Source: Myxococcota bacterium (GTDB lineage Bacteria > Myxococcota_A > SURF-8 > G963663525). Taken from it: a DNA stretch of 64,000 nt. The stretch lies in the NCBI GenBank assembly GCA_963676915.2, contig CAXXVK010000043.1:32001-96000 (forward strand). The letters run 5' to 3'. Positions 12,291 to 64,000 of this stretch are shown piece by piece. Position numbers and translations under genes: made by a program. Below the pieces are notes generated by a model that had not been told where the DNA came from, ran no database searches, and saw nothing but the letters and a program-made list of their open reading frames with translations. Position 1 is the first letter of the stretch. The number at the start of each line of letters is the position of its first letter.

Positions 12291-12319
12291 TTGACAAGCT
12301 CGTTTCTCACAGATATTTT
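12291..12319 (+). promoter_or_regulatory. Putative sigma70 promoter of gntR
   Basis: TTGACA-17 nt-TATTTT upstream of 12445. Confidence 0.45.
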
Positions 12320-12444: not shown

Positions 12445-13239
12445 ATGTCTGATTTTGAAAACATCATGCCGCCTTTGGAAAGAGACGTGCAGCCCGATAT
12501 TCCGAAAAAGGTGGACAAACGCAGTCCGATTCCGGCCTACGCTCAACTTGCCACCATTTTGCGCTCCAGCATCTCACAGGGAATTTACTCTCCCGGAGAG
12601 CGTTTGCCTTCGGAATCCGCTTTAGCCAAAGCCCACGGTGTCAGCGCGATGACCGCACGGCAGGCTGTCAGTGTATTGGAAGACGAACGCCTGATCCGCC
12701 GTATCCAGGGCAAAGGAACGTACGTCCGAAAAATTCAGGTCACGACAACCACCTTCAGCCTGGATGCTCTTCGAGAAGTCTTTGCCGACCAGGAGAATCT
12801 TTCCGTACGCATCATCAGTTCCCGAGTGGATAAAAACGTGGGAGTCGCCCACGAATTTCTTCGATTGACACCGGGACAACCGGTGATTCTGGTGGAACGC
12901 ATCGTGTTTTACAAAAACAAACCTTTCACCATGCATGTCAGTTATGCCACCGTGGACCCAAAATCCCCAACGGTGGAAAGCATGTTGGATACAGCCGTTT
13001 TAACGGAGTTGCTTTCGAAAGAAGGATATTCGAGATTCAAACGGGGGGTGCTTCGCCTGCTTCCCACACAACTGGGGAATCGCGAGGCCGATTTGCTGGA
13101 ACTGGACGAGGGACATCCGGTTTTCAGGCTGGAGCATTACTTCTATGACTTCAAGAATCAACCCGCTGCCATAGGTTGGTTCTTTATCGCTCCGGAAGCC
13201 ATGCCCTTGGTAAGCAAAATAGGGATCTGGGATGAATAG
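12445..13239 (+). CDS. GntR family (HutC/UTRA subfamily) transcriptional regulator
   Basis: wHTH PGERLPSESALAKAHGVSAMTARQA...QGKGTYV, followed by a UTRA-like domain. Confidence 0.9.
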   Translation: MSDFENIMPPLERDVQPDIPKKVDKRSPIPAYAQLATILRSSISQGIYSPGERLPSESALAKAHGVSAMTARQAVSVLEDERLIRRIQGKGTYVRKIQVTTTTFSLDALREVFADQENLSVRIISSRVDKNVGVAHEFLRLTPGQPVILVERIVFYKNKPFTMHVSYATVDPKSPTVESMLDTAVLTELLSKEGYSRFKRGVLRLLPTQLGNREADLLELDEGHPVFRLEHYFYDFKNQPAAIGWFFIAPEAMPLVSKIGIWDE

Positions 13240-13906
13240 TACGAAGAAAGACAAAGAACTTGAGAATCCGCGCCTGGAAACATTAACACAATTGATTTCG
13301 GATCTCGTCGAAGAGGATAGCTACAAGGAACTACGTACATTACTGGACGAAGGAGTGCCTCCAACCGACCTTCTTGGAGCCTGCATGGAGGGTATGCGTC
13401 GTGTCGGCCTTCGCTTCGAGGCTGGAGAATATTTCATCTCGGCGTTGATCATGGCCGGGGAGATCATGCGCGTTGCCACGGAAATTTTACGCCCCCATCT
13501 GGTGAAGGCTCCGACGACACCGCAAAAAGGCAAAGCGCTGATAGGCACCATCAAGGGTGATATTCACGATTTAGGTAAAAACCTGTTCATTTTCATGCTG
13601 ACCTGTCACGGTTTCGATGTCGTGGACCTGGGTGTCGATGTCCCGGTGGAAACATTTCTTGAAAAAGCACGAGAAACACCGTTCGATATCATCGGCTTGA
13701 GCTGCCTCATGACCACAAGTATCGAGAGTCTCAAAGAGGCCGTAACGACCTTGCGCGAAAATCTTCCTGAGCCTCAAGCGGAGATCGTTATCGGTGGAAC
13801 CTGCCTCGATGCCGGAGTTGCCGAGTATATCGGTGCAGAAAACTGGGCACAGGATGCTGCTACAGGATTGCGGATCTGCGAACGACTCATCGAAAAAAAG
13901 CAGTAA
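13232..13906 (+). CDS. Corrinoid (B12-binding) protein 1
   Basis: Cap domain GMRRVGLRFEAGEYFI; base-off/His-on motif GDIHDLGKN...SCLMT...GG; overlaps gntR by 8 nt. Confidence 0.92.
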   Translation: MNSTKKDKELENPRLETLTQLISDLVEEDSYKELRTLLDEGVPPTDLLGACMEGMRRVGLRFEAGEYFISALIMAGEIMRVATEILRPHLVKAPTTPQKGKALIGTIKGDIHDLGKNLFIFMLTCHGFDVVDLGVDVPVETFLEKARETPFDIIGLSCLMTTSIESLKEAVTTLRENLPEPQAEIVIGGTCLDAGVAEYIGAENWAQDAATGLRICERLIEKKQ

Positions 13907-14012
13907 GAAACAAGGGTTTCGATACCCGGTTGGGAAATATCATCCATTCCGAAATTTTTCTCTGTTTTCAGTAACTTCTCTGCAATTTAAAAAGAAATAA
14001 CAAATAAAATGT

Positions 14013-14034
14013 AAAGGGGAAATCCCTCCCCTTT
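14013..14034 (+). terminator. Hairpin after the gntR-corrinoid pair (possible terminator)
   Basis: AAAGGGGA-aatccc-TCCCCTTT inverted repeat; weak U-tract. Confidence 0.35.
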
Positions 14035-14062
14035 CGCCTCGTTTACGCTTTTCTTGAAAGGG

Positions 14063-14107
14063 AAGAAAAATATTTTTCTTGACTCTTCTATAAGACTAGA
14101 ATACTAT
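14063..14107 (+). promoter_or_regulatory. Sigma70 promoter of the methyltransferase operon with overlapping palindromes (candidate operator)
   Basis: TTGACT(14079)-17 nt-TACTAT(14102); perfect 18-bp palindrome AAGAAAAATATTTTTCTT at 14063-14080; TTCTA-N6-TAGAA inverted repeat in the spacer. Confidence 0.65.
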
Positions 14108-14138
14108 GAGTTTGTGTTTGGGTGTAAAGGAACTTTCA

Positions 14139-14789
14139 ATGAGCGATTACCCACACAAAATTCTCTGTTGCAGGTCTTTGGCGCCAACGCTGGAAGAATT
14201 GCTTGGAAGCGACGCCCCCCTCACCATTCTTGATATTGCCTTACATTTGCAGCCGGAACGACTTCGTGCAGCGCTGTTGGAAACCATCGCCGAGTTGGAA
14301 GCTCCCGGTACCACGATTCTTTTAGGGTACGGGTTATGCGGTCGTGCGCTGGAAGGTGTGTATTCGAAGCACAGCCGCCTTGTTTTGCCGAAGATCGATG
14401 ATTGTGTGGGGATGTTTCTTGGATCACGCGAGCGGCACAGAGAGTCCCTGAGAACTCATTCAGGCCGGTACTGGCTGGAACGGAGCTGGCTGGATACAGA
14501 ACTCGATATTTTCAAACAACTTTATAAGGATTTAGGTCGTATTCCTGAAAAATACCACGATCGCATCGTGAAAATGACGCTGAAACATTACGACCGACTG
14601 GTCCTGTTTCGAGATGATCACGACGACGCCCAGGCGGTTTCCTACTGCGAAAACACGGCCAAAGAATACGGCATGACCTTCGAACGCATCGACAAAGACC
14701 TTGGGCTTTTGCGCCGACTGGTCTTTGGCCCCTGGGAACCCGAAGAATTCATCATCGTGGAACCGGGAACCCCTGTGCCTTTTTTCTGA
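14139..14789 (+). CDS. DUF1638-type protein (associated with corrinoid methyltransferase clusters)
   Basis: LHLQPERLR, LGYGLCG, PKIDDCVGMFLG and FIIVEPG patterns of DUF1638; RBS AAAGGA before ATG 14139. Confidence 0.8.
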   Translation: MSDYPHKILCCRSLAPTLEELLGSDAPLTILDIALHLQPERLRAALLETIAELEAPGTTILLGYGLCGRALEGVYSKHSRLVLPKIDDCVGMFLGSRERHRESLRTHSGRYWLERSWLDTELDIFKQLYKDLGRIPEKYHDRIVKMTLKHYDRLVLFRDDHDDAQAVSYCENTAKEYGMTFERIDKDLGLLRRLVFGPWEPEEFIIVEPGTPVPFF

Positions 14790-14803
14790 ACAAGGAGCTT
14801 TCC

Positions 14804-15613
14804 ATGATCGTAATTGCAGAAAAAATCAACGGAACTCGCAAAGCCGTCGGTGCCGCCGTGCGGGATCGCGATGCCGAATTCATCAAGAATCTGGCCTTGT
14901 CTCAAGTAGAAGCCGGCAGCAGCTATCTGGATATCAACGCCGGAACCACACCGGATCGCGAACCGGAAGACATGGCCTGGCTGGTCGAAACCGTGCAAAG
15001 CGTGACGGATACTCCCCTGTGTCTGGACAGCGCCAACCCGGCCGCGTTGGAAGCCGCATTGAGCCTGGTCAAGAAAACCCCGGTCATCAATTCCGTTTCG
15101 GGAGAGAAAAACCGGATCGAAGGCGTGCTCCCTCTGGCGCTCAAGCACAAAACAGGTCTTATCCTTCTGGCTCTGGATGACGAAACCGGTATTCCCAACA
15201 CGTGTGAAGGTCGCATGGAAATCGTCCATCGTCTGGTGGGTCTGGCCAAAGAAGGTGGTCTGGCGGAAAATCAGCTCTACGTGGACCCGCTGGTGACCAC
15301 CATCAGCACCGGCGACAAAAACGCAATGATCACCTACGACGCGATCAAGGAAACCCGAGCGGCCTATCCTGAAATTCACATTACCTGCGGACTGAGCAAT
15401 ATCTCTTTCGGTATGCCGCTTAGATCCCTGATCAATCAAACCTTTTTATCCATGTGCGTTCAGGTGGGACTGGACAGCGCCATTATCAACCCCAACGACC
15501 GATCCCTCAAAGGTGTGATGTTGGCCGCCGAGATGCTGGTAGGACGTGACAAGTTCTGTCAGAAATTCAACCGCGCCTTCCGTTCCAAGCAGATCGGTCC
15601 GTTGGATCAGTAA
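14804..15613 (+). CDS. Methyl-corrinoid:tetrahydrofolate methyltransferase (AcsE/MT II, pterin-binding family)
   Basis: IAEKINGTRK, YLDINAG, LCLDS, INSVSGE, GLSNISFGMPLR motifs. Confidence 0.9.
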   Translation: MIVIAEKINGTRKAVGAAVRDRDAEFIKNLALSQVEAGSSYLDINAGTTPDREPEDMAWLVETVQSVTDTPLCLDSANPAALEAALSLVKKTPVINSVSGEKNRIEGVLPLALKHKTGLILLALDDETGIPNTCEGRMEIVHRLVGLAKEGGLAENQLYVDPLVTTISTGDKNAMITYDAIKETRAAYPEIHITCGLSNISFGMPLRSLINQTFLSMCVQVGLDSAIINPNDRSLKGVMLAAEMLVGRDKFCQKFNRAFRSKQIGPLDQ

Positions 15614-15685
15614 GAATTTGTTTTCGCTCGTGGCTTGTCAATGGGATGGGGAGCCGCAAGCACCGTCAGCAGAAGGGAGAAACTC

Positions 15686-16330
15686 ATGGCTGATTTGAAC
15701 GATCTTTTCGACGCCATCGTCGAAATGCAGGAAGAAACCGCCCTGGAGCTTACCAACAAACATTTGGAGGGAGGCACTCCGGCAATGCAAATCTTCGACT
15801 GTTACCAGGACGCTCTGGCTGAAGTCGGAAAACGTTTCGAAAAGCAGATCTATTTCATCCCGGAACTGATTATGTCCGGTGAAATGATGAAAGCCGGTCT
15901 CGAGATTCTCAAGCCTCACATGGCAAACGAAGAAGCCAAGGAAGAAGAGAAAAAGAAGGGCGGCAAAGTACTTATCGCCACCGTCAGTGGTGATATCCAC
16001 GATATCGGCAAAAATATCGTGACCACCCTAATGGAACTCAACGGCCTGGATGTCAAAGACATCGGTGTGGACGTACCCGTGGATACCATTATCGAGGAAG
16101 CGGTTGCTTTCGAGGCTCAGGCGATCGGCCTTTCCGGCCTGTTGACTCTGGCTTTCGATCCGATGAAACAAGTCGTCGAAAAGCTGAAAGAAAAGGGTCT
16201 TCGTGATAAAATCAAGGTCATCATCGGTGGCGGTCAGATGGATGCCCACGTTTGCGAGCACGTCGGCGCCGACGCTTTCACCACCGATGCGGTGGAAGGT
16301 GTCAATGTGGTGAAAAGCTGGCTTAGCTAA
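15686..16330 (+). CDS. Corrinoid (B12-binding) protein 2, methyl carrier
   Basis: YFIPELIMSG cap; GDIHDIGKNIV...SGLLT...GGG motif; RBS AAGGGAG before ATG 15686. Confidence 0.93.
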   Translation: MADLNDLFDAIVEMQEETALELTNKHLEGGTPAMQIFDCYQDALAEVGKRFEKQIYFIPELIMSGEMMKAGLEILKPHMANEEAKEEEKKKGGKVLIATVSGDIHDIGKNIVTTLMELNGLDVKDIGVDVPVDTIIEEAVAFEAQAIGLSGLLTLAFDPMKQVVEKLKEKGLRDKIKVIIGGGQMDAHVCEHVGADAFTTDAVEGVNVVKSWLS

Positions 16331-16372
16331 CCCAATCGGCTGTTTTCAGCCGCAAACCGTAAGGAGAAATCC

Positions 16373-17704
16373 ATGAGTGGAAACGAAAAACTTACGCCGA
16401 TGCAACGCCAGGATGCTTTTTTGGACAAATGGATCGCCGCCGAAGGCGTTCCCTTCGTTGACGAGGAAGCCAAGGCCAAATATCAGGAACGCACCACCCT
16501 GGTGGCCAAAGCCTTCCGCCTGGACAAAGACATCAAGCGCGTGCCCATCATGCCTCTGACCACGTTCGCTCCGACCCAGATGGCGGGACTTTCCGGCAAA
16601 CAGGCAATGTACGATGCCGACGCCGCAGGCAAAGCCTATTACGACTTCGCCAAAACCTATCAGCCGGATACCGCAGGTTCCGCGCCGATGCTGATGTACG
16701 GTCCGGCTTTGGAAGCCCTGGATTACAAGCTTTACAAATGGCCCGGCCATGGCGTGGACGAAAACCTGTCCTATCAGTTCCATGAAAAAGAATATATGAA
16801 GCCGGATGAATACGACTGGCTGATTTCCGACCCCACCGATTACTGGTTACGGGGTTGGATGCCCAGAACTCACCTGGCCTTAGCGCCTTTGGCCAACATG
16901 TGGCCCATTTACGGTTCCATGGAAATGGCGATGTTCGGTCCCTGGCTGGTCGGCATGGGAACCCCGCAGATGCAGGAAGCCATGAAAGCTTTGATGGAAG
17001 CGGGCAAGCACTGCTTCGAATGGATCAACACACTGGGCGCTTACATGGGTAAAATCATGGCAGAGGGAATGCCTTTCGGTGCGGGCGGCTTCACCAAAGC
17101 TCCCTTCGACGTGCTCAGCGACTCTTTCCGAGGCACGACCCAGCTGATGATGGATATGTACCGCAAGCCGGACAAAGTCCTTGCTGCCGTAGAACGTCTG
17201 GTGAAGCCGATGATCGACCTGGGTGTTCGCGGAGCTATGGACAACGGCAACCCCGTCGTCTTCATCCCATTGCACAAGGGTGCCGATGGCTTCATGTCCG
17301 ACGATCAGTTCAAGACCTTCTACTGGCCTACGCTCAACGCCGTCATGCACGGTCTGGCCGATGCCGGTTGCATTCCTGCCTGTTTCGTCGAAGGCGGATA
17401 CAATCAGCGTCTGGAATACCTGAACGACACCAGCGACATCCGCAGCTTCTACCTTTTCGACCGTACCGACATGGCCAAAGCCCGCGAAGTGCTGGGCGGC
17501 AAGGTGTGCATCGGTGGAGGTATGGCCAATTCCCTGATTCTCACCGGAACGGTGGAGAAGGTGGTGGAAGAAACCAAGAAACTGATCGACACCGCCAAGG
17601 GCGACGGAGGGTATATCCTGAGCATCGGAACCGCCATGGACGAAGGCAAGCACGACACACTGAAAGCCTTCATCGACACCGGCCTGGAATACGGTGTCTA
17701 CTAA
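16373..17704 (+). CDS. URO-D/MtaA-CmuA family substrate:corrinoid methyltransferase (MT I; candidate O-demethylase)
   Basis: URO-D fold motifs APFDVLSDSFRG, DMYRKPDKV, FIPLHKGADGFMS, FYWPTL, GDGGYIL; cluster context. Confidence 0.8.
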   Translation: MSGNEKLTPMQRQDAFLDKWIAAEGVPFVDEEAKAKYQERTTLVAKAFRLDKDIKRVPIMPLTTFAPTQMAGLSGKQAMYDADAAGKAYYDFAKTYQPDTAGSAPMLMYGPALEALDYKLYKWPGHGVDENLSYQFHEKEYMKPDEYDWLISDPTDYWLRGWMPRTHLALAPLANMWPIYGSMEMAMFGPWLVGMGTPQMQEAMKALMEAGKHCFEWINTLGAYMGKIMAEGMPFGAGGFTKAPFDVLSDSFRGTTQLMMDMYRKPDKVLAAVERLVKPMIDLGVRGAMDNGNPVVFIPLHKGADGFMSDDQFKTFYWPTLNAVMHGLADAGCIPACFVEGGYNQRLEYLNDTSDIRSFYLFDRTDMAKAREVLGGKVCIGGGMANSLILTGTVEKVVEETKKLIDTAKGDGGYILSIGTAMDEGKHDTLKAFIDTGLEYGVY

Positions 17705-17744
17705 TTCAATGGCGTGATCCGCCTATTGAAGCGTTTGTTTTCTG

Positions 17745-17783
17745 CGAGGCGGTCGATACGAAACGACCGCCTCGTTTTTTTTT
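17745..17783 (+). terminator. Rho-independent terminator
   Basis: CGAGGCGGTCG-loop-CGACCGCCTCG followed by T9. Confidence 0.88.
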
Positions 17784-17849
17784 GCACAAGGCCAATGGTA
17801 TAATACGGAATCTTGGATTAAAAAATGCAGATATCCGCCACGATACGGG

Positions 17850-19694
17850 GTGACGATGACAAAGCAAGCAAACTCGAAATGGGTTACGATTCTCGTCCAG
17901 CCTTTCGGCAAACGTCTTCGTGCAAAACCCGGAACCCTTATTAGCGAAATTTTGGTAAACGAGGGCTTTATGCTCCCCTTGGACTGTGGTGGCCACGGGG
18001 TTTGCGGAAGTTGCCGGGTGCGTCTCCAAGGAAAAACCAGCCCACCGGACGAGGCAGAGATTCGCTTGAAGCAATCCGGTCGTTTGAAAGAGGACGAACG
18101 TCTGGCCTGCAAAACCCGGATAGAAGGCGATTGCGAGGTGGAGTTCTCCCGCCCGATCAGCGCCGGAGCGGAAAGCTGGCTGTTGGACGAACGCAGTCTC
18201 GACACGCTGTCTTTCGACAATCCGTTGATTGTTTCGGTCCCGTTGCAAGCCAGTGCACCCAGCCTGGATGATCCTCGTGCCGACGCTACCCGCGTGCTGG
18301 AAGATTCGCCGTCCCTGCAAGCTTGTTCCCACCTCGTTGCGGATTACGCCGTAGCCCGCGAACTGTCCATGAACGCGAGAGACTGGAACTGGAATTTTTC
18401 CGGTTTTATGCGTAACGAGGAGTTGGTGGGGATCGCTCCTGCCGGTGAACATCCGTTGGGACTGGCCGTAGACCTCGGTTCGACCAAACTTGCCGCGTAC
18501 TTGATTGACCTTCACGACGGAAAAATCCTGACCTCACGGGGAAGCGTCAACCCGCAAATCACGTCTGGTGCAGACGTGGTGACTCGTCTGCAAAAGGCCG
18601 TAAGCGACCCGGAAAGTCATCGACAACTTGTGACGATGATTCGTTCGGCAATCAGCGACCTCGTGACGGATCTCAGTACTCAGGCAAAGGCGTCACCGAA
18701 TCAAATCGCCGAAGCCTGTATCGTCGGCAATACCGTAATGACTCATTTGTATGCCGATCTCCCTCTAAAGCAGCTTGGCGCACCTCCCTTCGTGGCCTGT
18801 CTGGATCATGCCGTGGATATCAAAGCCCGTGAACTGGGACTTGAACTGGCACCCGGAGCTTACGTACACCTGCCGCCTTCCATTGGAGGATACGTAGGAG
18901 CGGACAACGTAGCCATGATTCTCGGTGCGGATCTCGATCAACCTTCCGGGCTGCGCCTGGGATTGGATATCGGCACCAATACGGAACTGGTCCTTTCCCA
19001 CACCCGACGGGCAATTGTTCATCACCTCCGCCCCTTCCGGACCGACTTTCGAGGGTGCTCATCTGAGTTCCGGGATGCGTGCGCTTTCCGGTGCCATTTC
19101 GCGCATATGGTTCGACGAGAGCGGACTTCGCTCCGAAACGGTGGACGGTAGCCCAGCGGCAGGATTGTGCGGCTTCCGGCTCCATCGACGCTATTGCCCA
19201 GTTGCTCGAACAGGGGTGGGATCAACGACCGTGGACACCTGGACCGTAACCGGTCCGAAGTGCTGCTCAAAGACGGTGTTCCTGCAGTGGCTTTAGCCAT
19301 GGGCGAACAGACGGTCCACGGTGACCCCGTCCTGTTGACCCAAGCCGATATCAGCCAGATTCAACTAGCGAAAAGCGCTATTTATGCGGCAGCGGACTCC
19401 CTGATGCGCGAAGCGGGAGTTCAGGCAAACGAGCTTGACGAAATTCTGCTGGCAGGATCTTTCGGCAGTCACATCGATGTGGTCAGCGCTCGGCGCATTG
19501 GCCTGGTGCCTGATTGCGAGAAAGCCGTTTACAAGCAGATCGGCAATGCAGCGGGTACGGGGGCAAGGCATTTGCTCAACGATCACGCCTACCGCGAACG
19601 TGCCGCCATTCTTTCTACCAAAGCACGATACCTGGAACTTTCCAACAAACCCACCTTCAAAACCGCCTTTGCCAAAGCTCTACGATTCGTTTGA
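17850..19694 (+). pseudogene. RACo/ASKHA (DUF4445) reductive activator of corrinoid proteins with N-terminal 2Fe-2S domain; three +1 frameshifts (probably sequencing errors)
   Basis: CGGHGVCGSC..RLAC ferredoxin; DLGST, DIGTNTE, GPTFEG, GLCGSG, LAGSFG and GNAAG motifs spread over three frames; extra bases near 18999, 19174 and 19213-19216. Confidence 0.85.
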
Positions 19695-20135: not shown

Positions 20136-23100
20136 ATGAAAAGGCAAGCCATATTAGGCGTTTTTGCCGCACTTCTTTTTTTGATTCCATTCACGAAAGC
20201 CAATGCTGAAACGATTGTCAGCAGCAACATCCGAAGCGATACGACATGGACGCTGGACGGAAGTCCTTACATTGTCACGACAACGATTACACTGAGTGCT
20301 TCTTCGGCCAACCAGTCCGTTGGGTTGACCATCGAACCCGGCGTGGAAGTTCGATTTGATGAAGGAGCTAGGTTGTACGTCGGTGACTATCGAAGCTACA
20401 ATAATTATTATGGTTGGCTTTATGCCGTGGGGACCGCTGACGCTCCCATTGTTTTTACCGCTAATTCTGATACACCGACACCGGGATACTGGTCCGGCCT
20501 CTATTTCAAAGACCAAAACCTGGACAACTCAACGGTACTTGACCATGTGGTTGTTGAGTATGGTCAACCCAATGTGTATGCAACGAATACGATTTTATCC
20601 ATAAAAAACAGCGACATCCGCTTTAGCGGCGGTCATGGCATCCAAATCGCCGACAATGCCAACGTCACGATTGGTGGCGAGGATATCGGCAACAACATTT
20701 ACCAGAATATCGGCAACGGCATCTATCAAGCCGACTCCAGCGTTTCGCTCACGATTGGACACAACGATATTTATGAAAACGATGGCGCCGCTCTTCGTGT
20801 TGGAGTGAACAACAATGTTTACGGCAATGTGATCCACGATAACGGCTACGATGAAATCCAAACCTGGGGAGGAAGACTCACTGGTGCCGTGACTTGGCGG
20901 AATCAGAACGTTCCCATCGTCGTGTTGGCATCGATCACCGTTCGGGCTTCGGCAGCGAATCAAACAACGGGGTTGACGATCGAACCTGGCATTGAGGTAC
21001 GTTTCAATCAAAACACCATGATTTATGTGGGTGAGTACTACAGCTACAACCACTACTATGGATGGATCCATGCTGCGGGAACGGCTGACGCTCCCATTGT
21101 TTTTACTGCTAACTCCGATGAGCCTACCCCAGGTTTTTGGGGTGGTCTCCATTTCCGGAATGAAACCACCGATGCATCAGTGGTGCTGGACCATATCGTT
21201 GTCGAGTACGGTCAGCCGAACATCTACGCTACGAACGCAACGTTTGCGATTACCAACAGCGAAATTCGCTACAGTGGAAGTATAGGAATCCATGTCGATA
21301 CTAGCGCCAACATCACCATTGGTGGAGAAGATCAAGGCAACAGTATTTATCAGAACGCAACGTACGGTATCTATCAGGCCGATACCAGTGTCTCCCTCAA
21401 TGTCAGCCACAATGAACTTTACGAAAATGGCAGCATTCCTATGCGGGTTTGTGCCATATCCAATACCTTTTCCAACTCGATCCATGGAAATGGTCAGGAT
21501 GTGATCCAAGTATGGGGAGGAAGGCTCAATCGCGATCTGACTTGGTACAATCAGAACGTTCCCATTGTCGTATTGGCATCGATTACTGTCCGCGCTGCAT
21601 CGGCAAACCAGACTGTTGGTTTGACCATCGAACCCGGTTTGGAAATCCGTTTTGATCAAAATACCAAGCTATATATCGGTGAATACACCTCTTATAACAA
21701 TTACAATGGATGGATCAACGCTTCGGGAACCGCAGAATCTCCCATTGTTTTCACAGCCAATTCCGATGAACCCACGGCGGGATTTTGGGGCGGTCTCCAC
21801 TTTCAAGATCAAACTACCGATGCATCGGTGGTGCTGGACCATATCGTTGTCGAGTACGGTCAGCCGAACATCTATGCCACGAATGCGACGTTCGCTATCA
21901 CCAACAGCGAGATCCGCTACAGTGGTAGCATAGGTATCCATGTCGATACTAGCGCCAACATCACCATTGGTGGTGAAGCTCAAGGTAACAGCATCTATCA
22001 GAACACGACCTACGGTATCTTTCAGGCTGATTCCGGCATTTCCCTCGACATCGGACACAATGAAATCTACGAAAACGGGGGTATTGCATTGTATCTAGGC
22101 AGAAATTTCAATGCCTATTCCAATTCTATCCATGATAACGGCTATGACATTCTTCAAACCAGAGGCGGGCAATTGGACAAAACCGTCACTTGGTACAACC
22201 AGAACGTCCCCATTATCGTCACGTCAACAATCACCGTGCGTTCAACCACGGCGAACCAGAATGTGGGTTTGACCATTCAGCCCGGTGTCGAAGTTCGCTT
22301 CAATGAGAATACCAAGATCTATTTCGGTCAATACGTTAGTTACAACCATTACAATGGTTGGATCAATGCGGCAGGAACGGCAGAGAACCCGATTGTTTTT
22401 ACCGCCAATTCCGATGAACCGACACCAGGATTCTGGGGCGGTCTTAGCTTTCGTAATGAAACAATAGACGATTCGGTTGTGCTCGATCATGTCATCATTG
22501 AGTACGGTCAGCCCAATCTCTATGCCTACGATGCTGCTTTTGCCATTACCAACAGTGAACTGCGTTTTAGCGGCAGCATGGGAATTCACATCGCCAATAA
22601 CGCCAACCTCACGATCGGCGGAGTGGATCAGGGAAATAAAATTTATCAAAACACGACCTACGGAATTTATCAGGATGATTCCAGCGTCATGCCCGATATC
22701 GGCTACAACGAGATCTACGAAAACGCGGGTATCGCTCTGCTCATGGGCAGGAATATGAATGTCCATGATAACAGCATTTACGACAACGGAACGAACCGTA
22801 TTCAGGTTCGCGGTGGCACTTTAACCGCTACCACAACCTGGCACAACCAAATCACTCCTGTTCCGATCGAACCTCTGGCTGAAATCACTATTCGTGCGTC
22901 GTCAGCCAACCAGTCTGCCGGGTTGACCATCGAACCCGGTGTGCAAATTCTCTGTAACCAGGATTTCCGATTCATTCTCGGTATTTATACCAGTTACAAC
23001 AACTATTACGGCTGGATCAACGCTACAGGGACGGCAGACAAGCCCATTGTTTTCACACCGAATACCGACGAACCGACACCGGGATTTTGGAAAGGAATTT

Positions 23101-26100
23101 ATTTCCGTGACCAGACCAACGATACCCTATCGGTTTTGTCTCATGTGGAAATGCATTATGCCGGGCAGGAAGGCACCGCTGCCATCTACCTGGCGAGTGC
23201 CAGTCCGACGATTACCGACTCGTTGATCGAGCACAGTGCGACGTACGGAATTTATGCCGACGACGGAGCGCTTAACGCAACGATTGCAAACAATACTTTC
23301 TTAAACAACGGGGCGGCTCCGATTTCCGTGCTTCCGAATGCCGTCGAAACGATTCGTGGCAACACAGGGCAGGGGCGAATCACGATTCGTGGTGGTACCC
23401 AAACTCGAACGGTAACACTTCACAAGCAGGATCTCGATTTTACCGTTTCTGGATCTATCACCGTACGATCCTCCTCGGCTAACCAATCCTCCGGCCTGAC
23501 GATAGAGCCTGGTACGAATATTCTCTTCGATGAAGGTACTTATATTCATGTGGGGATTTACACCAGCTACAATAATTATTATGGTTGGATCAATGCTACA
23601 GGTACGGCCAACAGTCCGATTGTTTTTACAGCCAACACCACGGAGCCTACACCCGGATTCTGGGGGGGGCTGAACTTCCGTGACCAAACCAACGACAGCT
23701 TGACGGTTCTCGATCACGTGATCGTTGAATATGGCCAACCCAATATCCAAGCTACCAATGCAGCGATAACGTTGAAAAACAGCGACATCCGTTTCAGTGG
23801 TACGAACGGCCTCCAATTTTCGGAAAACTCATGGGGGACGATAGGTACGGAGGACAACGGTAACAGGATTTACCGAAACACCAGTTACGGGATCTATCAA
23901 GATAACGGGAACGGAGTACCGGCAGTCGGTTACAACGAAATCTATGAAAACGGAGAAGTGGCTGCACGTTTAGGACGCAATTTCAACGCATATGGCAATG
24001 TTATTCACGACAATGGTGCCGATGAAGTGCAGACCTGGGGTGGAAGTCTGGATCGCAGTGTGACATGGCACAACCAGAACGTTCCCATCGTTGTATTGAA
24101 TTCTGTCACGGTTCGAGGGGCTTCTGCCAACCAGACTGTCGGCTTGACCATCGAGCCCGGCACGGAAATTCGATTCAATGAGGGGAAGACGCTGATTTTC
24201 GGTATCTACACAAGCTTCAACGATCACTATGGATGGATCAATGCCACGGGAACACCGGAAGCCCCCATCCTGTTCACCGCAAATGCCAATCCACCTACGC
24301 CGGGATTTTGGAACGGTATTTACTTCAGAACTCAAACCTCGGATGCCAATACGGTTCTTGACCACGTTATTGTCGAGTACGCAGGGTATAGCAGCAATGC
24401 CAATATTTATGCGGAGTCCGCAGCGGTTACGATTCAAAACTCGACCATTCGTCATAGTTCCAATACGGGAATCTATCTGGATGACGGTTCCAACGGTACG
24501 ACGATTACGGACAATGAATTTTACGATAACGCCGTAGCCGCTATCAGCGGGTTACCCAATGCCGTAAACAATATGTCGGGCAATGCCGGAGAGGGCCGCA
24601 TTCACATACGTGGTGGGAACTTTACACTGTCGAGCGGTACATGGCGACGGCAAGGATTGGACTATGAAGTGACGGGATCGGTTACCGTTCGTGGCTCCAG
24701 TGCCAACCAAACCTCTGTTCTCACGATCGATCCGGGTGTAACCGTGCGATTCCGAAGCGGAACGAACCTCTCCTTCGGTATTTATACAAGTTTCAATAAT
24801 CACTATGGTGCATTATGGGCCAAGGGACTCGAAAACCTGCCGATTCGCTTCAGTTCGGCTTCGGATCTTCCTGCTCCCGGCGATTGGAACGGACTTTATT
24901 TTCGTACCTACACCGTCGATGCCTCGACTACCATGGAAAACTGCATTGTGGAGTACGCTGGCACGAACGTGTACGTAGACAACGCCAATTTCGCATTCAG
25001 TAAAAATACGCTTCAATATGGAAACGCCAACGGCTTGACAGTTAGCGGAGGGCAGGCCGATGGCATGCTCATCGAGTGTAACAACTTCAAAGGTAACAAC
25101 GTGGGGGTTTCCATAACGGATGGAGCCGACCCCAGACTTTTCAACAATAACTTTATTGAAAATATCCAGGATGGCGTCAATAATTCTGGATCGTCTACGG
25201 GTATCGATGCCATCGGAAACTGGTGGAACGATCCGGGGGGACCGGCAACAGGCGATCCCGCGACCGGTGCCGTGCTGTATGAACCGGTTTTGACGGAGCC
25301 ATCCACGTGCGTTTCATTGCCGCCGGACAATTTCCCTCCCTACTCGCCCATGCATCCTACGCCGGAGGATGGTGCTACGGATGTAGCTCTCGATGAACTG
25401 AACAACCTCCAGCTTTCATGGCGTGGCGGAGATCCCGACCCGGCTGACGAAATCTTCTACGACGTGTATTTCTCCACCGATCCAGACGCGCTGATGCTTA
25501 TTGCATCGGATGTAACGGAAACCTCGTTTGAGGTTAACGATCTCGCTGTTGGGATGCGCTATTATTGGCAAGTCGTGGCCAAAGACGGAGCCGAAAATGA
25601 AACTCAGGGAGCGGTGTGGCAATTCGTTACTGCCGGTCCTCCTCCCGACTTGGCATTGAGCGGATTGGAGATCGATGTTCCCGAAGGTGGTCTATTCAGC
25701 GGAATGGAAACCACAATTCGGGTTACGGTCACGAATGTGGGGGCTGGGCCGGTTTCCATACCTTTTTCCACCGATTTAAATGTGAATCAAGCCTTGTACG
25801 AATCGCAGTCAATCGACCGGGTGATGATCACTGACGAGGCTGAAACGCTCTCTTTCACATGGCTTGCCAAAGCTGGAACCCATACCGGTGAATTTGTTGT
25901 GGATACGGATAATATCGTGGAGGAATCCGACGAAACAAACAATATCTTGACCTTCGATCTACCTGAAATTCCTTACCCTGACCTGGTTGTTCACGACATA
26001 TCGTTACTCACGGAAGTTCCGGTACAGGGTGAGATTTCCTCCGTGCAGGTTACGTTGGACAACCTTGGTGCGACGACGGTGAAAGACTTGCTTGTCGAAC

Positions 26101-29100
26101 TTGAATCGAGGGGAACAACCTTTTCGAACTGGCAAACCGGCGGTTTGGTAGCCGGAGACTTCCCGACACTTATCTTCGAAGTTCCAACACCCGCTGGAGA
26201 GTTTTCTGTCACTGCCTTTGTAGATGCAACCGGTCTTGTTACGGAATCGGATGAAGCAAACAACAGGGTGACTCAGACGCTAGCGACCATTCCTTATCCC
26301 GACTTGATGGGGATGGAACTGGTCGTCGATCCACCATCGCCATATATCAACGAGACCGTGACGGTTTCTCTTGCCTTGGGTAACGAAGGTGAAGGCGGCA
26401 CAGTTCTGCCATTCGACGTGGCACTGTATGTAGATGAAACCAAAGTCGATACTGTTCGGGTAAACGATCCCCTGCGTACTGCTGAGGATAGTATACCGGT
26501 AGAACTTGAATGGGTCGCTCAGTCGGGATTGCACACACTGGAGGTACGAATCGACGAAAAACTGGAAGTGGAAGAAAGCGATGAAGCGGACAATATCATT
26601 GCGGTGGGCGAGCTGGAAATGCTGCTTCCCGACTATGTTCCCACGCTATCCGACTTCCGGCCCGAGCAGATTTCTCAGGGTGAATCGGTTTATTTTACAG
26701 CTACGGTTGAAAACCAGGGAGAGGGCGCGAATATTTTACCGATAAAAGCTCGTTTCTATATCGATGATTCGGCTTTCAACACAACCGAAATGCTTACTTG
26801 GCTGGAAACCGGAGCCTTGGCACAAGTTACAAACGATACGGCGTGGAGAGCACAGGCCGGGGAACATTGCTATACCATTATCGTAAATCCGGACGGAAGT
26901 ATGCCGGAGGCCAACCTTGAGAACAATAGCATTACGGATTGCCTGCCGTTGATCGAGCAACCCGACCTGACATTGATCTCCCTGACGTATGATCCAACCG
27001 AACTTGTTCTGGGTAACGTCATTTCGTTCAGTACGACGGTTAAAAATGTGGGGACTGGAGATACCTGGCTTCCCTTCTCTATCGCGCTTTATGCCAATGA
27101 TTCCAGACAAGCGGGCGCGAAGACCGTGGAAATTCTTGAAGTTAACCAGGAGCAGACTGTTACCCTGCCATGGCGGGTAACATCCGGTGACTGGACGATC
27201 AAGGTTGTGGCGGATGCGGATGACAATGTGGAAGAATTCGATGAAACCAACAACGTTTCCGAACTTGTTTTACCACACATTTACAGCAAACCTGACATCA
27301 CCGTGTCTCTTGACGACTATGAGGGTGAAATCGTCTGGGGTGAACGCACCGTTTCCTGGACGGCCAGTCATAACGAAGAGGTTGAGATTTCTCGTGTACG
27401 TATCTATGCCAGACATAATGGAGATACATTGTTATCTGATACGACCGAGGCACTAGGTAACATACCTTGGGATACGTCTTCATTCCCGGATGGTACCTAC
27501 CGTTTACGGGGTATCGTCACGGATGCCAATGGCGCGGAAGACGAGTTTTTTACCGGTTCTTTCGAGGTGAAAAACGCCCGGTCGATTACATTGAGTTCCT
27601 CTCCAACATCCTGGCAATCAGGCAGAATCAATGAAGAACTCACGTTTCAGATTACGGTTCGCAATTTGCAACCCGAAGAAGATACGATCAAGATTTCTTC
27701 GATCAATTCGGACAATATTTTCAGTTTGGCGATCGATGATGCGGAACTCACTATTCCGGCTTGGGGTAGTTCTTCTACAACCGTTCGTTCTATAGCGGAT
27801 GCAACCGGTACTTATGCCTTCGTCGTTGAAGGCGTTTCCGACTCCAATCCGGCACTGGCAGACAGTGTTGATCTAAGTGTTCGAGTCAGCGATCCCTTCC
27901 GATTCTCGCTATCCCCTGACAATATCAGTACAAGCCTCGGCGACAAGTTGTCGTACTCGCTCATCGTCACCAACCAGTTGACCATTGCCGATACCTACAG
28001 TTTCTCTGTTTCCGGTTTCCCGGAAGGTTGGGTTACGACGCCAGATTCCGTGATGTTGAATCCCGGAGAAACTAGAATCGTAAGTATGACGGTTGAGGAA
28101 GTCGACCAGACCGGGGAATTCGAACTCACGGTTGAAACCACCTCCACCGAAACTGGAGTGATGAAATCGGAATCGAGCAGTCTGTCCACCGTTGCCGACC
28201 CGAAAATTACATGGCTTTGGCCGGAAAACGGCTACCGCAGTGGCAGTGACCGCATTCTGATTCAATGGGAAACCAACGTTTCGACATTGGCAACAGCTTA
28301 TGTACGTCACGATGGTGATACCGAATGGACATCATACGACGCACAGGATGGACTGTTTCATGGTGTTTGGATTGAAGGATTACAACGTAACACAACCTAC
28401 GAATATTACGTGGAAAGCACCAATGACTTTGGAAGTGCAACTTCCAACGTGCGTTCATTCACGGTTTTGAACGGAGTGGTATTTTCCGAAAGCAGTCATA
28501 ATTTTTCCTTGTACAGAGGCAAGAGCGAAGAATTTTCGATTTCCGTCCAGAATACGGACTCGATTCCTCACCAGATCATGGTCTATGTTCTAGACCCGCC
28601 TGAGGATCTGAACGTCGGGATTGTCGGGCCCGGTTCCGGTCGAGGTGAAACGCTGATCGTCCCCTCTGGAGGGGTGGCTTCTTTGACACTGGCAGCTCAT
28701 GCACAGGACAGTCTTTTGGATGACTATGCTTTTTCCTTGAACCTTGAAACGGTTGATGAGGGAACCGTCATTTTCGACCAAACACAGGTGGCGATTCATG
28801 TCATGGACCTGGCCGTCGATTTTTCCGTGGCATATGTTTCAGAGAATGCCGCAACATTGTCTCAACGCTACAGAATCACAAACCGTGGTGCGGCGATCAA
28901 CGACCTTAGCGTGATTTTGGATGAACTGCTCGCCGAAGGCGCGACGATCGTGCCGTTGATCGACCATGCCTTCCTCGATGAAGGCGAGACATTGGAGTTC
29001 GATGTTATTCCGGATATCACACCACCTTTCTCTGCAATTGGCGGAACGATGACCGTTACAGGCGGCGGACATACGGTTGAAAAAACGCTCACTTTCTCTT

Positions 29101-32100
29101 TACCTCCCTCGTACGATACGTTTACCTATCGATTGTCGGAAGCGGAGTGCGCTTTCAACCCAACCCAAGGAACGTTTACAACTCAAGACTTTGACAACCG
29201 CTATACTTCATTTACTTGGGAAGCCGGTCGTACGAACCTCATCAACTGGAGTGTCGATGATCGTGAGGAAGAACTTTACGAACCTAGCGATACTGAACTC
29301 GCTGAGGGTATCCAGGTGTTCGATGCTTCGGTCTCCATGCTTCTGAACGATAATACTTTGACGTTTACATTCGATGGTCTCGTTCAGAATCCTTATGTAG
29401 ATCCGGGCGACGATGTTCCCATGGTGCGACGACGTATCTCATGGTCAAGTTCGGTGGATTCGGCTACAACCGAATCATCGGTCGTGAACGTTTTCCACAG
29501 TGCAGATGCTTTCGAAAGTTATCTTGATCTCCAAGATGTAATCGGTGCGGCTGATGGAACTCAGCAAGAGAAAGTCAATCTTTTCTGGGCTGCGAAAGCT
29601 TCGTCGGATCTTTCATCGATCATCGCAATGGAAGGTAGTCAGGATCCTTTGCTGGAACTGGCCGCCACGACGTTGAAAGACTGGGTAGCCGATAGCACTG
29701 GACCATGGCAATTCATGGGGCTTTTCGAGAAAGTTTCCACGGGAGCCAACAGTTACACCACAAACCGTCAGCGTGTGGAATCGTCAGTGGCAACGCCAGC
29801 CGGTTTAACGCCTGAAGACTTAACATCCGCGTACCTGGGTTTCCACTTCAGTCCGCAATCTCATTTGACTCCCCACGATGTGGATATTTTCTTCAACGAT
29901 TGGCTGGTTGGAAATTTCAGGCAGGATGCGCCACGAGGTTATTTCTTCTACGGTCTGGAGGCATACCAAGTCTTTTTCGGCATGGGTGCAACCAACCAAG
30001 TGGCTGTGACTATCTATAACAACAAGCCTGGCGAGTACTCGATTCTTTACGATTTTTCACTGCTTTTTACTCTGCTGGACCAGGAAATTTCTTACGTTGC
30101 AGTCAGCGAAGCTGAGGCACTTCAGGAACTTTGCGCTACATATTCAGACCTTTTGCGACGAACCGACCTTGCCGCTTATGAAACCTCTATCGCCTTGCCG
30201 GAGTCGACGATTCTTATCGATCGAGAAACGAACCTCGATTTGACCGTGTTCAATCGAGGTTCCGTTGCGGGTGTGGCGCTTGCCAGCTTATCCATTGACG
30301 ATCAAAGCGTTTGGGAGGACTTCGTTTACGTGCCGGGATTGGGAAGAACGGATTTCCCAATATCCTGGACACCGACGGAAGCCGGTGAACATTCGGTCAT
30401 TTTGTCGCTGATGCCTTTCGGACCGGACCGAGACAGTGCAAACGACCAGGTTTCCGTTTCTATTTCCGTTGTCGATCAGCTTACACATGAACTAACCGTG
30501 GTGATTACACCGCCAGAAACCGGGAGCGTACAAGGTGTCGGTATAGACTGTCCCGAGGATTGCGGAGAAACCATTACCGATGGCGAAATTATAGATCTCC
30601 AGGCAATTCCGCATACGGGATACGAATTTATCGGTTGGAAAGGAGACGATACTTCTGCCGATCCCAACCTTCAGGTCACCATGGATGGTCCGAAGAGCTA
30701 TCTTGCCGAGTTCGCCTGTATCGAATTGGCGAAGCCTGTTCTCACAACCGATGTGGAGGGCGTTTACAACGAGGTTCCTTATGATCTTTCCTGGGAAACC
30801 GTCGATGTGGCGACCGGTTATGTTTTTCAGGAAAGCATGGACCCCGATTTCCTGGCATGGGATGAGACCTCGACGGAATTGTTAACTCAAGATTATGAAA
30901 AGTTCGTCGATACAACAACAACGTTCTACTACCGTGTCAAAGCCGTTTCCGATTGCGGTGAGAGTGCTTGGTCTGACACGGTATCTGTCGTCGTTTCCGA
31001 CCATCACCTTTATACGCTTGATGTGGCTGTAGAAGGACCGGGAACTATCGAGGGTACGGGCATCGTCTGTCCCGAAGATTGTCAGGAAAGTATCGAGGAA
31101 ACATTCTCTGTCAGCCTTGAAGCCCTGCCTGACTACGCTCATGCATTTGTGCAATGGAATGTTACCGGATCTGAAACACCTGTATTCGATAACCCTTACG
31201 TTTTCGATATGGACGGAGATACCAATACCACAGCCGTCTTTGAATGTTTCCAGCCGGATCCAAGCGTAGCCCAGACCTCGAACTCTCAGGTAGAATGGCT
31301 TGAATCCTACACCATCTCCTGGTCGGGTGTTGATTATGCCGAGGGGTATGAAATCGAGGAATCGCTATCACCCGATTTTGCCGAATCCGTAACGATTCAA
31401 ACAACGGATATCGAACAGAGCTACCAGCATGAAGTCGATGTGGACACAACTTATTACTACCGAATCAAAGCAAGGACACCTTGTACGGTCACGGAGTCTT
31501 CCGAAACCGTTTCCGTTACAGTTTTGGCACGCGATGAGTACACGGTTACAGTGGGTGTCACGGGTGAAGGTTCCATCGAAGGCTCCGAACTGGCTTGTCC
31601 TGGTACCTGCATGGCAACGTACTATGAAAATTCACCTGTTTCCTTCACGGCTATTGCCGCCCAAGGCTGGCGTTTCGATCGCTGGGAAGGCGACATCCAA
31701 CAGACCCAGGCCGAAGTCTCCATAGAGGCCATTTTGCAAAACTATACACTGACAGCAGTATTCGAAATGATCGAACCGGTCATTGAAGTCGTACCGCTGG
31801 CTATCGATTTCGGTGAAGTGTCCGTCGCCGGAGCCGGAGAATATCGTGAAGTTTCGATCACAAATACTGGTGGTGCAACGTTAAACGTTAGCAGTATCGG
31901 GATGACTGCGGAGACGCCTTACTCTTTCTCTTTGATAAGCGAGACGTGCACAAGGGCTTCGTTGGCCCGTAATGAACATTGTGTGCTTCAAGTCCGTTTT
32001 TCGCCCGTTCGTGCGGAACAAGTGCAGGGTGGCTTGTGGGTCCACAGCAACGATCCAAATCAAAGTGAGGTGGTAATAACACTCGAAGGCAAGGGTGTGG

Positions 32101-62200: not shown

Positions 62201-64000
62201 GCGGATGAACGTGTCAACTATCCCGTCTTGCGCACCAACGGTGCGAATGGACAGCTAGCCACCGAAAAGGGTGATCGCCAGCGGGTCACACTTAGCCTCG
62301 TGGATGCCAATGGCTCCCAGGATATCGAAAAAGTTCAGATCAAGATCGGTACCGGCATCGATTGTATCGGTGATACCTGTTCGGTGGAGAATCCTCGCGG
62401 TTGGTTCGTTTGGGAACGCAACCCCGAACCGCCTACCGTCGGATGCAGCGCGCCGCAGCCGTTCCACGAAGCGGTCAGCGTCGATGCGATGAACGGATGT
62501 GCCGAGACGCCACTGAGTGGCAACCAATTGGTAGAGTTGATCGAAGAAGAATGCTTCGTAGAGGACAACGATTCCATCCTGGACATGCGTTTCACCTGGG
62601 TTCTCGACGGAAGCTATGGAGACGTGCAGGACAACAAGATCTATTTATGGTTCATAGACTCTCAGGGGAACAAGATCAGCTGGGCCACTCCTGAGAACCA
62701 GCATGACGATGCCCTGACGGAACGTTTCCATGTCTCGACCAGACCGTATGAACCGGCTGCTTTGAGCGCGGACAAAATGTGGACCAACTGGCAGTTGCTG
62801 GGTGAAAAGAACAATCTTTACAATCAGCATATCGGTCAGTCGGTGTTCCAGCCTACGGCTTTGAGCTTGAGCGATTTGAACATTAAAGCCCAGGACAACA
62901 TTTTCGACAACGGTGACCAGGTTGAGTTCAAGTTCTACTTTGCCAAGTTACCGACGGAAACCTGGGGTTACTACGAAGACCTTGCCGAATTGAACTGCAC
63001 GGATTACCCGACGGTTCACGAAACCGACTGGGTGCCTGCTGCCAAGACATATTTCGGCGTTTCCTGTCATTCGGACGCTGATTGTGCGACGGGAGCGACC
63101 TGCAATGTCGAGGATACGAGTGCTTGTATCGGCGGTGATTCCTGCTACGACAACAGTTCGTGTATAGGAAGTGCGTCGGCTTCGGCTTGCGAAGACACCA
63201 GCCGCTGCGTGGGTGAAAACGTTTGTACGGAGAACGACGATTGCGACGTGGACAACGGATACTATTGCGATACTGGAATCAATCGCTGCGTTGGTGAACA
63301 TAAATGTAGCAAAACCAGTACGGACATCTGCCCGCCGGCGTTCTTCTGCGAAGTATCGGATGACTGCTCGCTTCCGGGATATTCCTGCAACCTCGACACG
63401 TTACGATGCGAAGGGTTCCGCCAGTGCAGCGGTCTGGAACCGGACTGTCCTGAAAACTACAACTGCATTGTCGAGCAAAACTGCCCCGAAGCCGGGTACC
63501 TGTGTGACAACGAGTTGGGCAAGTGCGTGGGTGTTGGCGAGTGCAGCGTATCCGATCCAAGTTGTCCCGAAAATTATTATTGCGAAGTCAGCGAGGGTGG
63601 CACCTGCTCGGGTGGTTGTCACGAAAGTAGCGACTGCCCCGGCAATTACGATTGCAGCGTGCAGGACACCAGCGCTTGTTGGGGCGGACCGATCTGCGAA
63701 GATTTGAGCGTTTGCGTCCAGGAAGCGGCCAGCGGCGTTTGCAGTACCGATATCGATTGTGAAAACCAGTTCGGTGCTGGATACGGCTGCGATATCGTGG
63801 TGTCCCACTGCGTAGGTTCCAACCAATGTAGTATCGCCGATCCGAGTTCTTGTCCCTCGGGATACAATTGTGTGACCGATGAGGAACAAAGTTACTGCCT
63901 AGGTGATGCGGACGGTCTGGTTTGCGCTACAGACGGTAATTGCCCTGAGGATTACTACTGTGATACCGCAGCTTCACGTTGCCGTGGCGATGGCGAGTGC
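53221..64000 (+). CDS. Giant secreted Gly-rich/Cys-rich mosaic protein (>3590 codons, runs off the window); frame break at G8 53569-53576
   Basis: AGGTGA RBS, ATG 53221 and signal peptide ...QPAWG|EC. The frame starting at 53576 reads without a stop to 64000 (Gly-rich, WTG..WENPSNW, FN3/LamG-like segments, dense Cys repeats). Absent from the ORF track because it has no stop in the window. Confidence 0.85.

Follow-up and report, generated by a model that had tools for sequence, protein, structure and literature searches.

Here, we analyze a 64,000-nt stretch of a Myxococcota genome (contig CAXXVK010000043.1, positions 32,001–96,000; hereafter the window), in which a gene for a GntR/HutC-type transcription factor, gntR, is directly followed by a gene for a corrinoid protein, cor1, next to an operon for a corrinoid-dependent methyltransferase system with a corrinoid carrier of its own, Cor2. 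The two genes are adjacent and translationally coupled, they are transcribed separately from the catabolic genes, Cor1 forms a lineage apart from Cor2, and a putative operator is conserved at the promoter of the catabolic genes. We hold it slightly better than even that Cor1 is a cobalamin-binding regulatory partner of GntR, be it of the methylation/redox or of the occupancy type. This suggests a gntR-linked corrinoid co-regulator as an undescribed B12-based switch, whose nearest known logic is that of AerR/PpaA.

The 8-nt overlap of cor1 with gntR, noted in the initial annotation, is confirmed in the window: the ATG at 13232 is the sole start candidate in the cor1 frame, and the gntR stop ends at 13239. 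Metagenomes were scanned with an alignment of 46 GntR sequences, and 80 of the 93 confirmed relatives were retained; in 18 loci (L022–L037, L041, L042) GntR is at least 50% identical to that of the window. The window proteins were mapped by tblastn on L022–L048 and on L001, the single relative recovered by a contig scan of genomes with Cor1 (a Myxococcota metagenome-assembled genome (MAG), OY782497, with the same gene order, 70–91% identity, and an intact corrinoid reductive activase, RACo). The proposed search for conserved gntR–corrinoid adjacency gave a clear outcome, as the pairing is strictly conserved: in each of the 15 metagenome loci extending across the junction, gntR is directly followed by a co-directional gene for a Cor1 ortholog (45–59% identity), and the same holds for L001, with the same 8-nt overlap. 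The overlap is kept in 13 of these 15 loci (11 of 13 counting distinct sequences; L024 and L027, as well as L025 and L026, are identical at the junction), the exceptions being L032 with a 3-nt gap and L035 with a gap of 61–94 nt. The register is thus preserved in 13/15 loci although the proteins are only 45–66% identical, and its recurrence there and in L001 indicates that the pairing is more than chance.

In the three near-identical loci L038–L040, where GntR is only 34% identical, a corrinoid gene starts 6 nt after gntR; no corrinoid gene is found behind gntR in the six loci L043–L048, where the GntRs are ~30% identical. As a rough proxy for linkage, at least 46 of the 120 listed GntR clusters have a longest contig equal in length to that of a Cor1 cluster among those listed; for contigs of 3 kb or more, the number is at least 41 of 75. 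A literature search for a GntR-linked corrinoid sensor or for the gntR–cor1 pairing found no paper, the matches being general mentions of GntR genes close to methyltransferase genes or dealing with unrelated regulators.

The initial annotation placed gntR and cor1 in a transcription unit of their own, before a hairpin and a new promoter. The separate unit is borne out by the metagenome loci: 16 of the 18 have the catabolic genes upstream of gntR and divergent from it, so that Cor1 is transcribed there with the regulator and never with the enzymes. The divergent set comprises genes of methyltransferase II (MT II), Cor2, and methyltransferase I (MT I), of a DUF1638 protein in eight loci, and of RACo where the flank allows; in the loci L025 and L030 gntR is preceded by less than 380 nt of sequence, which nevertheless contains the divergent operator. 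The co-directional order of the window and L001 is the exception. This arrangement settles the point better than the hairpin at 14013–14034, which was rejected as a transcription stop: its folding energy of -11.8 kcal/mol (z-score -1.74) is equaled by 11 of 200 shuffled sequences, a T-run is missing from the + strand, and L001 has no such hairpin. The promoter is weak by consensus but conserved together with the embedded operator in every related locus.

The operator candidate, CTATAAGACTA, occurs at no more than two mismatches in all 18 promoter regions considered, i.e., 16 divergent intergenic regions, window positions 13907–14150, and the L001 equivalent (16 of the 18 are distinct); ten regions have no mismatch, six have one, and two have two. 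It is placed between a TTGAC-type -35 and a TAnnAT-type -10 box, and the three elements are conserved as one module in 18/18 regions, with a second tandem copy of CTATAAGACTA in several loci. The window contains one copy (0.21 expected at no more than one mismatch), which is also the single copy in the whole 5.18-Mb genome, and the motif is absent from gntR's own promoter-like site at 12291–12319; a TTGACA...TATTTTTAAT string similar to the window site is found upstream of the L001 gntR. Since the motif overlaps the promoter spacer, it would act in repression by occupancy. In L025 (position 2059) and L026 (position 4492) an extra perfect operator precedes a gene for a DctP-type solute-binding protein of a tripartite ATP-independent periplasmic (TRAP) transporter downstream of cor1, so the regulon of that population includes a carboxylate importer.

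That the catabolic cluster has a separate carrier was also correct, and the two corrinoid proteins differ consistently. Cor1 has both B12-binding domains (B12-binding_2, 46.7 bits; B12-binding, 72.4 bits), with GDIHDLG as its DxHxxG motif, and is 35% identical to Cor2 (74/210). Among 49 Cor1 orthologs D110, H112, G115, S157, C158, G188, and G189 are invariant, L160 is invariant or nearly so, and the cap helix is invariant as well; hence, cofactor binding is under selection. The phylogeny suggested initially separates the two lineages: in a maximum-likelihood tree of 13 Cor1 and 11 Cor2 sequences, all taken from the loci, Cor1 and Cor2 are split with 100/100 support, the Cor1 branches being longer and the L038 corrinoid protein forming a long branch, of unsure placement, at the base of Cor1. 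Identity to the window proteins is 45–59% for Cor1, 59–73% for Cor2, 61–77% for MT II, 61–74% for MT I (leaving out the 34% identical MT I-like gene of L035), and 51–66% for GntR; judged by these values, Cor1 evolves faster than Cor2.

The motif GDIHD[LI]GKN is kept in both lineages. The Cor1 signature consists of G[IL]SC[VL][LM]T, IGGTC, YFI[AS]ALIMAGEIMR, and an N-terminal extension of ~14 aa; the Cor2 counterparts are YFIPELIMSGEMM, GLSGLLT, and IGGGQ. Two cysteines of Cor1, C158 (invariant in 49 sequences) and C191 (in at least 90%), encoded at window positions 13703–13705 and 13802–13804, replace Gly and Gln beside the SxL and GG motifs for the cofactor tail. A thiol-based redox role for them is conceivable. 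Homologs of Cor1 number 543 at E<=1e-10; the 120 matches listed have 44–75% identity and include proteins of Desulfoferula mesophila, Dethiosulfatarculus sandiegensis, and Desulfobacteraceae. The ESM Atlas returns only generic corrinoid-protein clusters.

The genome itself (5.18 Mb, 74 contigs, 90.8% complete) offers Cor1 few other partners. It has 17 matches to the B12-binding domain, of which only the two of the window lie in frames of corrinoid-protein size, the others being in open frames of 142 aa or 440–731 aa; Cor1 and Cor2 are its only MtaC-type corrinoid proteins. The URO-D family is represented by hemE and the window MT I only, no MttB is found, and the pterin-binding proteins are FolP, MT II, and AcsE. 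Thus, no orphan MT I, MttB, or MT II needing Cor1 was found, and at 90.8% completeness the genome content argues against such a partner.

Turning to the regulator, the gntR product has a GntR winged helix-turn-helix (wHTH) domain (PF00392, 67.3 bits against a cut-off of 27), present in 46/46 orthologs, and a UTRA domain (PF07702, 38.7 bits against 23.8), which is detected in all 46 aligned orthologs, though weakly, the best E-value being only 3.4e-14. With the same model, 132.9 bits are obtained for an unrelated HutC regulator in L046. The UTRA of this clade is therefore far from the family model yet conserved within the clade, which is compatible with a novel ligand as well as with a protein partner.

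Prediction of a GntR–Cor1 complex, from our own alignments of both proteins, gave a score of 0.44 (individual runs 0.44, 0.44, and 0.41), the best of three controls scoring 0.00; at least 90% of the contacts recur between runs, and the predicted local distance difference test (pLDDT) value of the partner is at least 77. Of 80 solved complexes, 58 attain the mark for support, as do 2 of 110 mismatched pairs; but only 7 of the 80, and both of the mismatched pairs, attain it with a score of 0.60 or less. The multimer check proposed in the initial annotation thus comes out above the controls and lends weak support only.

Several points weigh against a regulatory role of Cor1. The role is suggested by gene context and one weak binding prediction, and a prediction of this kind is "more often wrong than right" unless the pairing is likely beforehand. 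Fusions of the two proteins, another proposed sign of a functional link, were not found: no GntR–B12 fusion is present among the 21 longer relatives of Cor1, which are MetH forms and P0241, nor does a B12 domain occur in those long proteins that were inspected within the best 150 representatives from the GntR profile search. These long proteins are a tandem GntR–UTRA duplication (P0306) or N-terminally extended regulators; P0241 (493 aa) was considered as a fusion and rejected, as a corrinoid protein there is followed by low-complexity, out-of-frame sequence. Conservation of the UTRA domain within the clade is good, and this domain could recognize a small molecule by itself. In L038, where GntR is 34% identical, the corrinoid protein that follows looks carrier-like and lacks the Cys signature. 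Finally, the best solved relatives of Cor1 are carriers (4JGI, 1Y80, MttC, and MetH): for both Cor1 and Cor2 the best structure match is the Desulfitobacterium corrinoid protein 4JGI, at 143.8 bits for Cor1 and 164.6 bits over the full length for Cor2, and Cor1 appears to retain every feature of a working methyl carrier.

Alternatively, Cor1 might be a methyl carrier, ordinary or auxiliary, for this demethylase system. Its place on the gntR transcript would then do no more than ensure a constant supply of carrier, or Cor1 would serve a second MT I or acceptor encoded elsewhere. We consider this rather unlikely. It is in line with the intact DxHxxG, SxL, and GG motifs and cap domain, and with the TIGR02370 score of Cor1, 138.9 bits, which is not far under the 164.1 bits of Cor2 (both are under the cut-off of 215.3, so the model has little discriminating value). 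Moreover, mttB genes are described as "often associated" with genes for B12-binding proteins and GntR regulators, and methyltransferase clusters with GntR regulators and several B12-binding proteins as common in acetogens, in the part of that paper drawn on here (PMC9303578). However, a carrier-family feature, a shared operon with MT I and MT II, is seen for Cor2 and not for Cor1: none of the 16 divergent loci has cor1 together with the enzyme genes, and it always stands behind the regulator with conserved translational coupling. The separate, faster-evolving lineage with changes beside the cofactor-binding motifs, and the lack of an orphan methyltransferase in the genome as far as it is complete, also speak for a regulatory partner rather than a carrier.

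If Cor1 is such a partner, the switch may operate as follows. The HutC-type GntR would bind CTATAAGACTA between the -35 and -10 boxes and repress the operon, as the position and conservation of the motif suggest. Cor1 would be made in step with GntR and bind it, for which strict adjacency, conserved translational coupling, and the weak complex prediction speak. The state of the cobalamin of Cor1 would then decide whether GntR remains on the DNA. Plain B12 occupancy fits the data equally well as cobalt methylation or redox state; our preference for the upper-ligand or redox state of the Cor1 cobalamin as the signal is, in absolute terms, tentative. In MetH, the Asp-His-Ser residues and the cap helix are linked with methyl cycling rather than with binding alone; the retention of D110, H112, S157, and the invariant cap helix in Cor1 would count for an upper-ligand or redox signal. 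With substrate present, basal MT I would methylate Cor1, and methyl-Co(III)-Cor1 would release the repressor, catalytic turnover thereby being the input. In such a methyl relay, which is likewise tentative, the repressor would leave its operator when Cor1 is in the methyl-Co(III) form, and MT II and RACo would return Cor1 to the Co(I)/Co(II) form. RACo, which lies behind a terminator of its own, could keep Cor1 reduced before induction.

Within the same general reading of Cor1 as a partner of GntR, Cor1 might instead report B12 availability, as holo against apo protein, with UTRA sensing the substrate; the operon would then be expressed only if both substrate and cofactor are present. The eut operon, which needs both ethanolamine and adenosylcobalamin (AdoCbl), sets a precedent for such a gate. 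Neither CobD/CbiB nor a homocysteine S-methyltransferase domain (MetH) nor MetE is found in the genome at its 90.8% completeness, and owing to the first of these the host may depend on imported corrinoids. In addition, genes directly after cor1 point to uptake in L028 (8426–13765; BtuD/BtuC/BtuF-like ABC genes and a TonB-dependent receptor) and L027 (9141–12061; a TonB-dependent receptor and DUF4198), and no cobalamin riboswitch is found at the gathering threshold in the window or in seven loci. These uptake genes, however, have neither an operator at no more than one mismatch nor a cobalamin riboswitch at the gathering threshold; such genes follow cor1 in only three loci with downstream flank, two of which (L024 and L027) are from the same population; and the genome already uses three cobalamin riboswitches elsewhere (contigs C68, C13, and C48). 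The Asp-His-Ser residues and cap helix of Cor1 speak against mere occupancy too. We regard this variant as unlikely.

Still less probable is a corrinoid chaperone or reservoir without effect on GntR, which would accept imported B12 and load Cor2 with it, or present it to RACo or DUF1638 for activation. Constitutive co-expression with the regulator would keep such a loader present before induction, and the uptake genes of L028 and L027 would suit it; but it leaves both the translational coupling to a DNA-binding protein and the weak predicted GntR–Cor1 interface unexplained, and we know of no need for a corrinoid loader in the characterized three- or four-component systems.

Similar to CarH/LitR, Cor1 combines a four-helix cap with a Rossmann B12 module, and in CarH that module controls DNA binding. 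That Cor1 senses light through AdoCbl in the manner of CarH/AerR and acts on GntR in this way is nevertheless highly improbable. The shared two-domain module and weak matches to CarH (NF052513, 34.3 bits) and to the photoreceptor-like structures 8JBS and 8J2W are set against a cut-off of 400 bits for NF052513 and far better matches of carriers to Cor1; CODH/ACS, corrinoid reductive activase, and benzoyl-CoA-reductase-like genes in the hosts indicate dark, anoxic habitats. In CarH, moreover, a MerR domain and the B12 module form one fused protein; Cor1 has no MerR domain, and the DNA-binding protein is separate here and belongs to the GntR/HutC family.

The proposed co-regulator shares its logic, and only its logic, with AerR/PpaA, stand-alone B12-binding co-regulators of the separate transcription factor CrtJ/PpsR in purple bacteria (PMC5362033, PMC9144470, PMC6199135, as far as excerpted). 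The initial annotation set the logic apart from CarH photoreceptors and cobalamin riboswitches; to set it apart from every known form of B12-dependent regulation would be too strong. AerR/PpaA, in these excerpts, act with PpsR/CrtJ on photosystem genes in response to light or redox, whereas the partner here is of the GntR/HutC family and the target a demethylase operon; unlike them, Cor1 is a methyltransferase-type corrinoid protein with methyl carriers as its nearest relatives. The solved structures closest to GntR are NagR/YvoA and DasR (dre operators), which likewise combine wHTH and UTRA domains and have operators overlapping catabolic promoters. For those, the text available to us describes small sugar-phosphate effectors and no dedicated protein partner (PMC4333415, PMC4918961); the window GntR differs from them in its divergent UTRA (38.7 bits) and in its operator, CTATAAGACTA.

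Similar to the three- and four-component corrinoid systems for O-demethylation and for haloalkanes (MtvABC, OdmABCD, VdmABCD, CdmBCA, and MtoABCD), the operon has MT I, a corrinoid carrier, a methyltetrahydrofolate (methyl-THF) MT II, and a RACo-type activase. Those modules are described with one carrier each, while here there is a second, regulator-linked corrinoid protein. The excerpted text of a recent paper (PMC13222342, 2026) states that the regulatory system of CdmBCA was not identified and that the regulation of such systems is largely unexplored. Corrinoid methyltransferase systems of anaerobes act on methoxylated aromatics, methylamines, betaines, and halomethanes. If the reading of Cor1 as a partner of GntR is true, the very large GntR/HutC family would gain an input of a new kind, and Cor1 would be the second example, after AerR/PpaA, of a stand-alone B12 protein that steers a transcription factor, here in the carbon metabolism of dark, anoxic settings. 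If the methyl relay holds, the cell would read flux through a B12 enzyme and not a ligand, the inducer being protein-borne and generated by catalysis, which might be a general answer to how anaerobes regulate many corrinoid methyltransferase systems; should the signal be the methylation state, a sensor module for demethylatable compounds would be possible. The conserved operator, the small proteins, and cultured hosts of Cor1 orthologs (Desulfoferula mesophila, Dethiosulfatarculus sandiegensis) make the switch directly testable.

Regarding distribution, the GntR has 147 homologs at E<=1e-10 in a set of 5.8 billion proteins; the 120 matches listed are 48–80% identical, and the few that are named belong to Deltaproteobacteria or Deferrisomatales. 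At 50% clustering the ortholog clade is one representative (405.6 bits) with a graded series below it, and the profile search yields 78 such representatives at E<=1e-30. Among 60 relatives in the phylum the only GntR ortholog is that of the L001 genome (80% identity), the next best match being 27% identical, and the same-genus genome among them has none. The cluster is thus patchy in the phylum and was probably acquired, despite unremarkable GC: a composition check found no GC anomaly over it.

The features of the cluster, which spans window positions 12445–19694 on the + strand, are collected in Table 1; the gap between cor1 and the DUF1638 gene is 199 nt, the ATG at 14136 being the probable start of the latter rather than 14106.

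Table 1. Features of the gntR–cor1 unit and the adjacent catabolic operon (window coordinates).
Feature	Position	Strand	Basis
Promoter-like site of the gntR–cor1 unit, TTGACA-17-TATTTT	12291..12319	+	10/12 consensus matches
gntR, GntR/HutC-type regulator, wHTH and divergent UTRA domain, 264 aa	12445..13239	+	Open reading frame (ORF), Pfam
8-nt overlap ATGAATAG, cor1 start within final gntR codons	13232..13239	+	
cor1, candidate regulator-linked corrinoid protein, cap and Rossmann B12 domain, 224 aa	13232..13906	+	Pfam, ortholog alignment, tree
Hairpin in cor1–DUF1638 spacer, weak, not conserved	14013..14034	+	Folding against shuffles
Catabolic operon promoter, TTGACT-17-TACTAT	14079..14107	+	9/12 consensus matches
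Putative GntR operator CTATAAGACTA within promoter spacer	14088..14098	+	Conservation; single genome copy
DUF1638 protein	14136..14789	+	117.6 bits; sole copy in genome
MT II, methyl-THF:corrinoid methyltransferase (pterin-binding)	14804..15613	+	NF005719, 323.8 bits, cut-off 259
cor2, the operon's own corrinoid carrier	15686..16330	+	4JGI, 164.6 bits, full length
MT I, URO-D-fold, MtvB/CdmB-like substrate:corrinoid methyltransferase, 443 aa	16373..17704	+	CdmB 9rui, E 2.5e-23
Strong hairpin resembling a terminator, between MT I and RACo, 12 pairs followed by a T-run	17744..17775	+	
RACo-type corrinoid reductive activase, frame broken in assembly	17850..19694	+	L001 copy intact, 612 aa

The closest match of MT I is CdmB, as relatives of which the O-demethylases MtvB, OdmB, VdmB, and MtoB are named (PMC13222342, in excerpt), and DUF1638 is predicted to act in the reductive recharging of cobalamin (PMC12478193, in excerpt). 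Desulfobacterota-like loci have a gene for a Phenol_MetA_deg outer-membrane channel between MT I and RACo or nearby (L023, 2239–3153; L028, 1892–2830; L030, 6676–7623), and BcrAD/HgdD-like genes are found nearby in L030. Together with the operator-bearing TRAP gene, these point to methoxylated aromatic acids; the operon is probably an O-demethylase for such compounds. The Phenol_MetA_deg gene is missing in the window and in L001, the position being taken in the window by the terminator-like hairpin.

AcsE is encoded in a carbon monoxide dehydrogenase/acetyl-CoA synthase (CODH/ACS) cluster ~190 kb away on the same contig (G000:C43:232690-240048, L102), together with prismane/CODH, ACS, a corrinoid iron-sulfur protein (CFeSP) subunit, and a CooC-like ATPase. 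The methyl-THF made by the demethylase could enter this pathway, and the cluster is its likely sink. CODH/ACS, i.e., the carbonyl branch of the Wood–Ljungdahl pathway, is unusual for a Myxococcota-like MAG.

Three +1 shifts in succession, near 18998, 19174, and 19214, interrupt the frame of the RACo gene. As the shifted-frame pieces, compared ungapped, are still 65–90% identical to the intact 612-aa L001 protein, the breaks are either very recent or assembly errors. Independent contigs of run X1 (depth ~2) end at 18956, 18998, 19174, and 19219, adjoining the first two breaks and lying near the third; the two runs of DNA contigs compared with the window (depth 2–4.5) show no differences from it, leaving 18182–18803, 18957–18997, and 19175–19218 uncovered.

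A thiamine pyrophosphate (TPP) riboswitch (71.7 bits), unrelated to the cluster, is located at the edge of locus L023, at 3–109 on the - strand. Downstream in the window, a giant ORF at 20136–32825 encodes 4229 aa with many near-repeats of a ~250-aa unit, an acidic C-terminal tail, and then a membrane anchor. A second giant ORF, at 53534–64000, encodes more than 3489 aa and runs off the window end.

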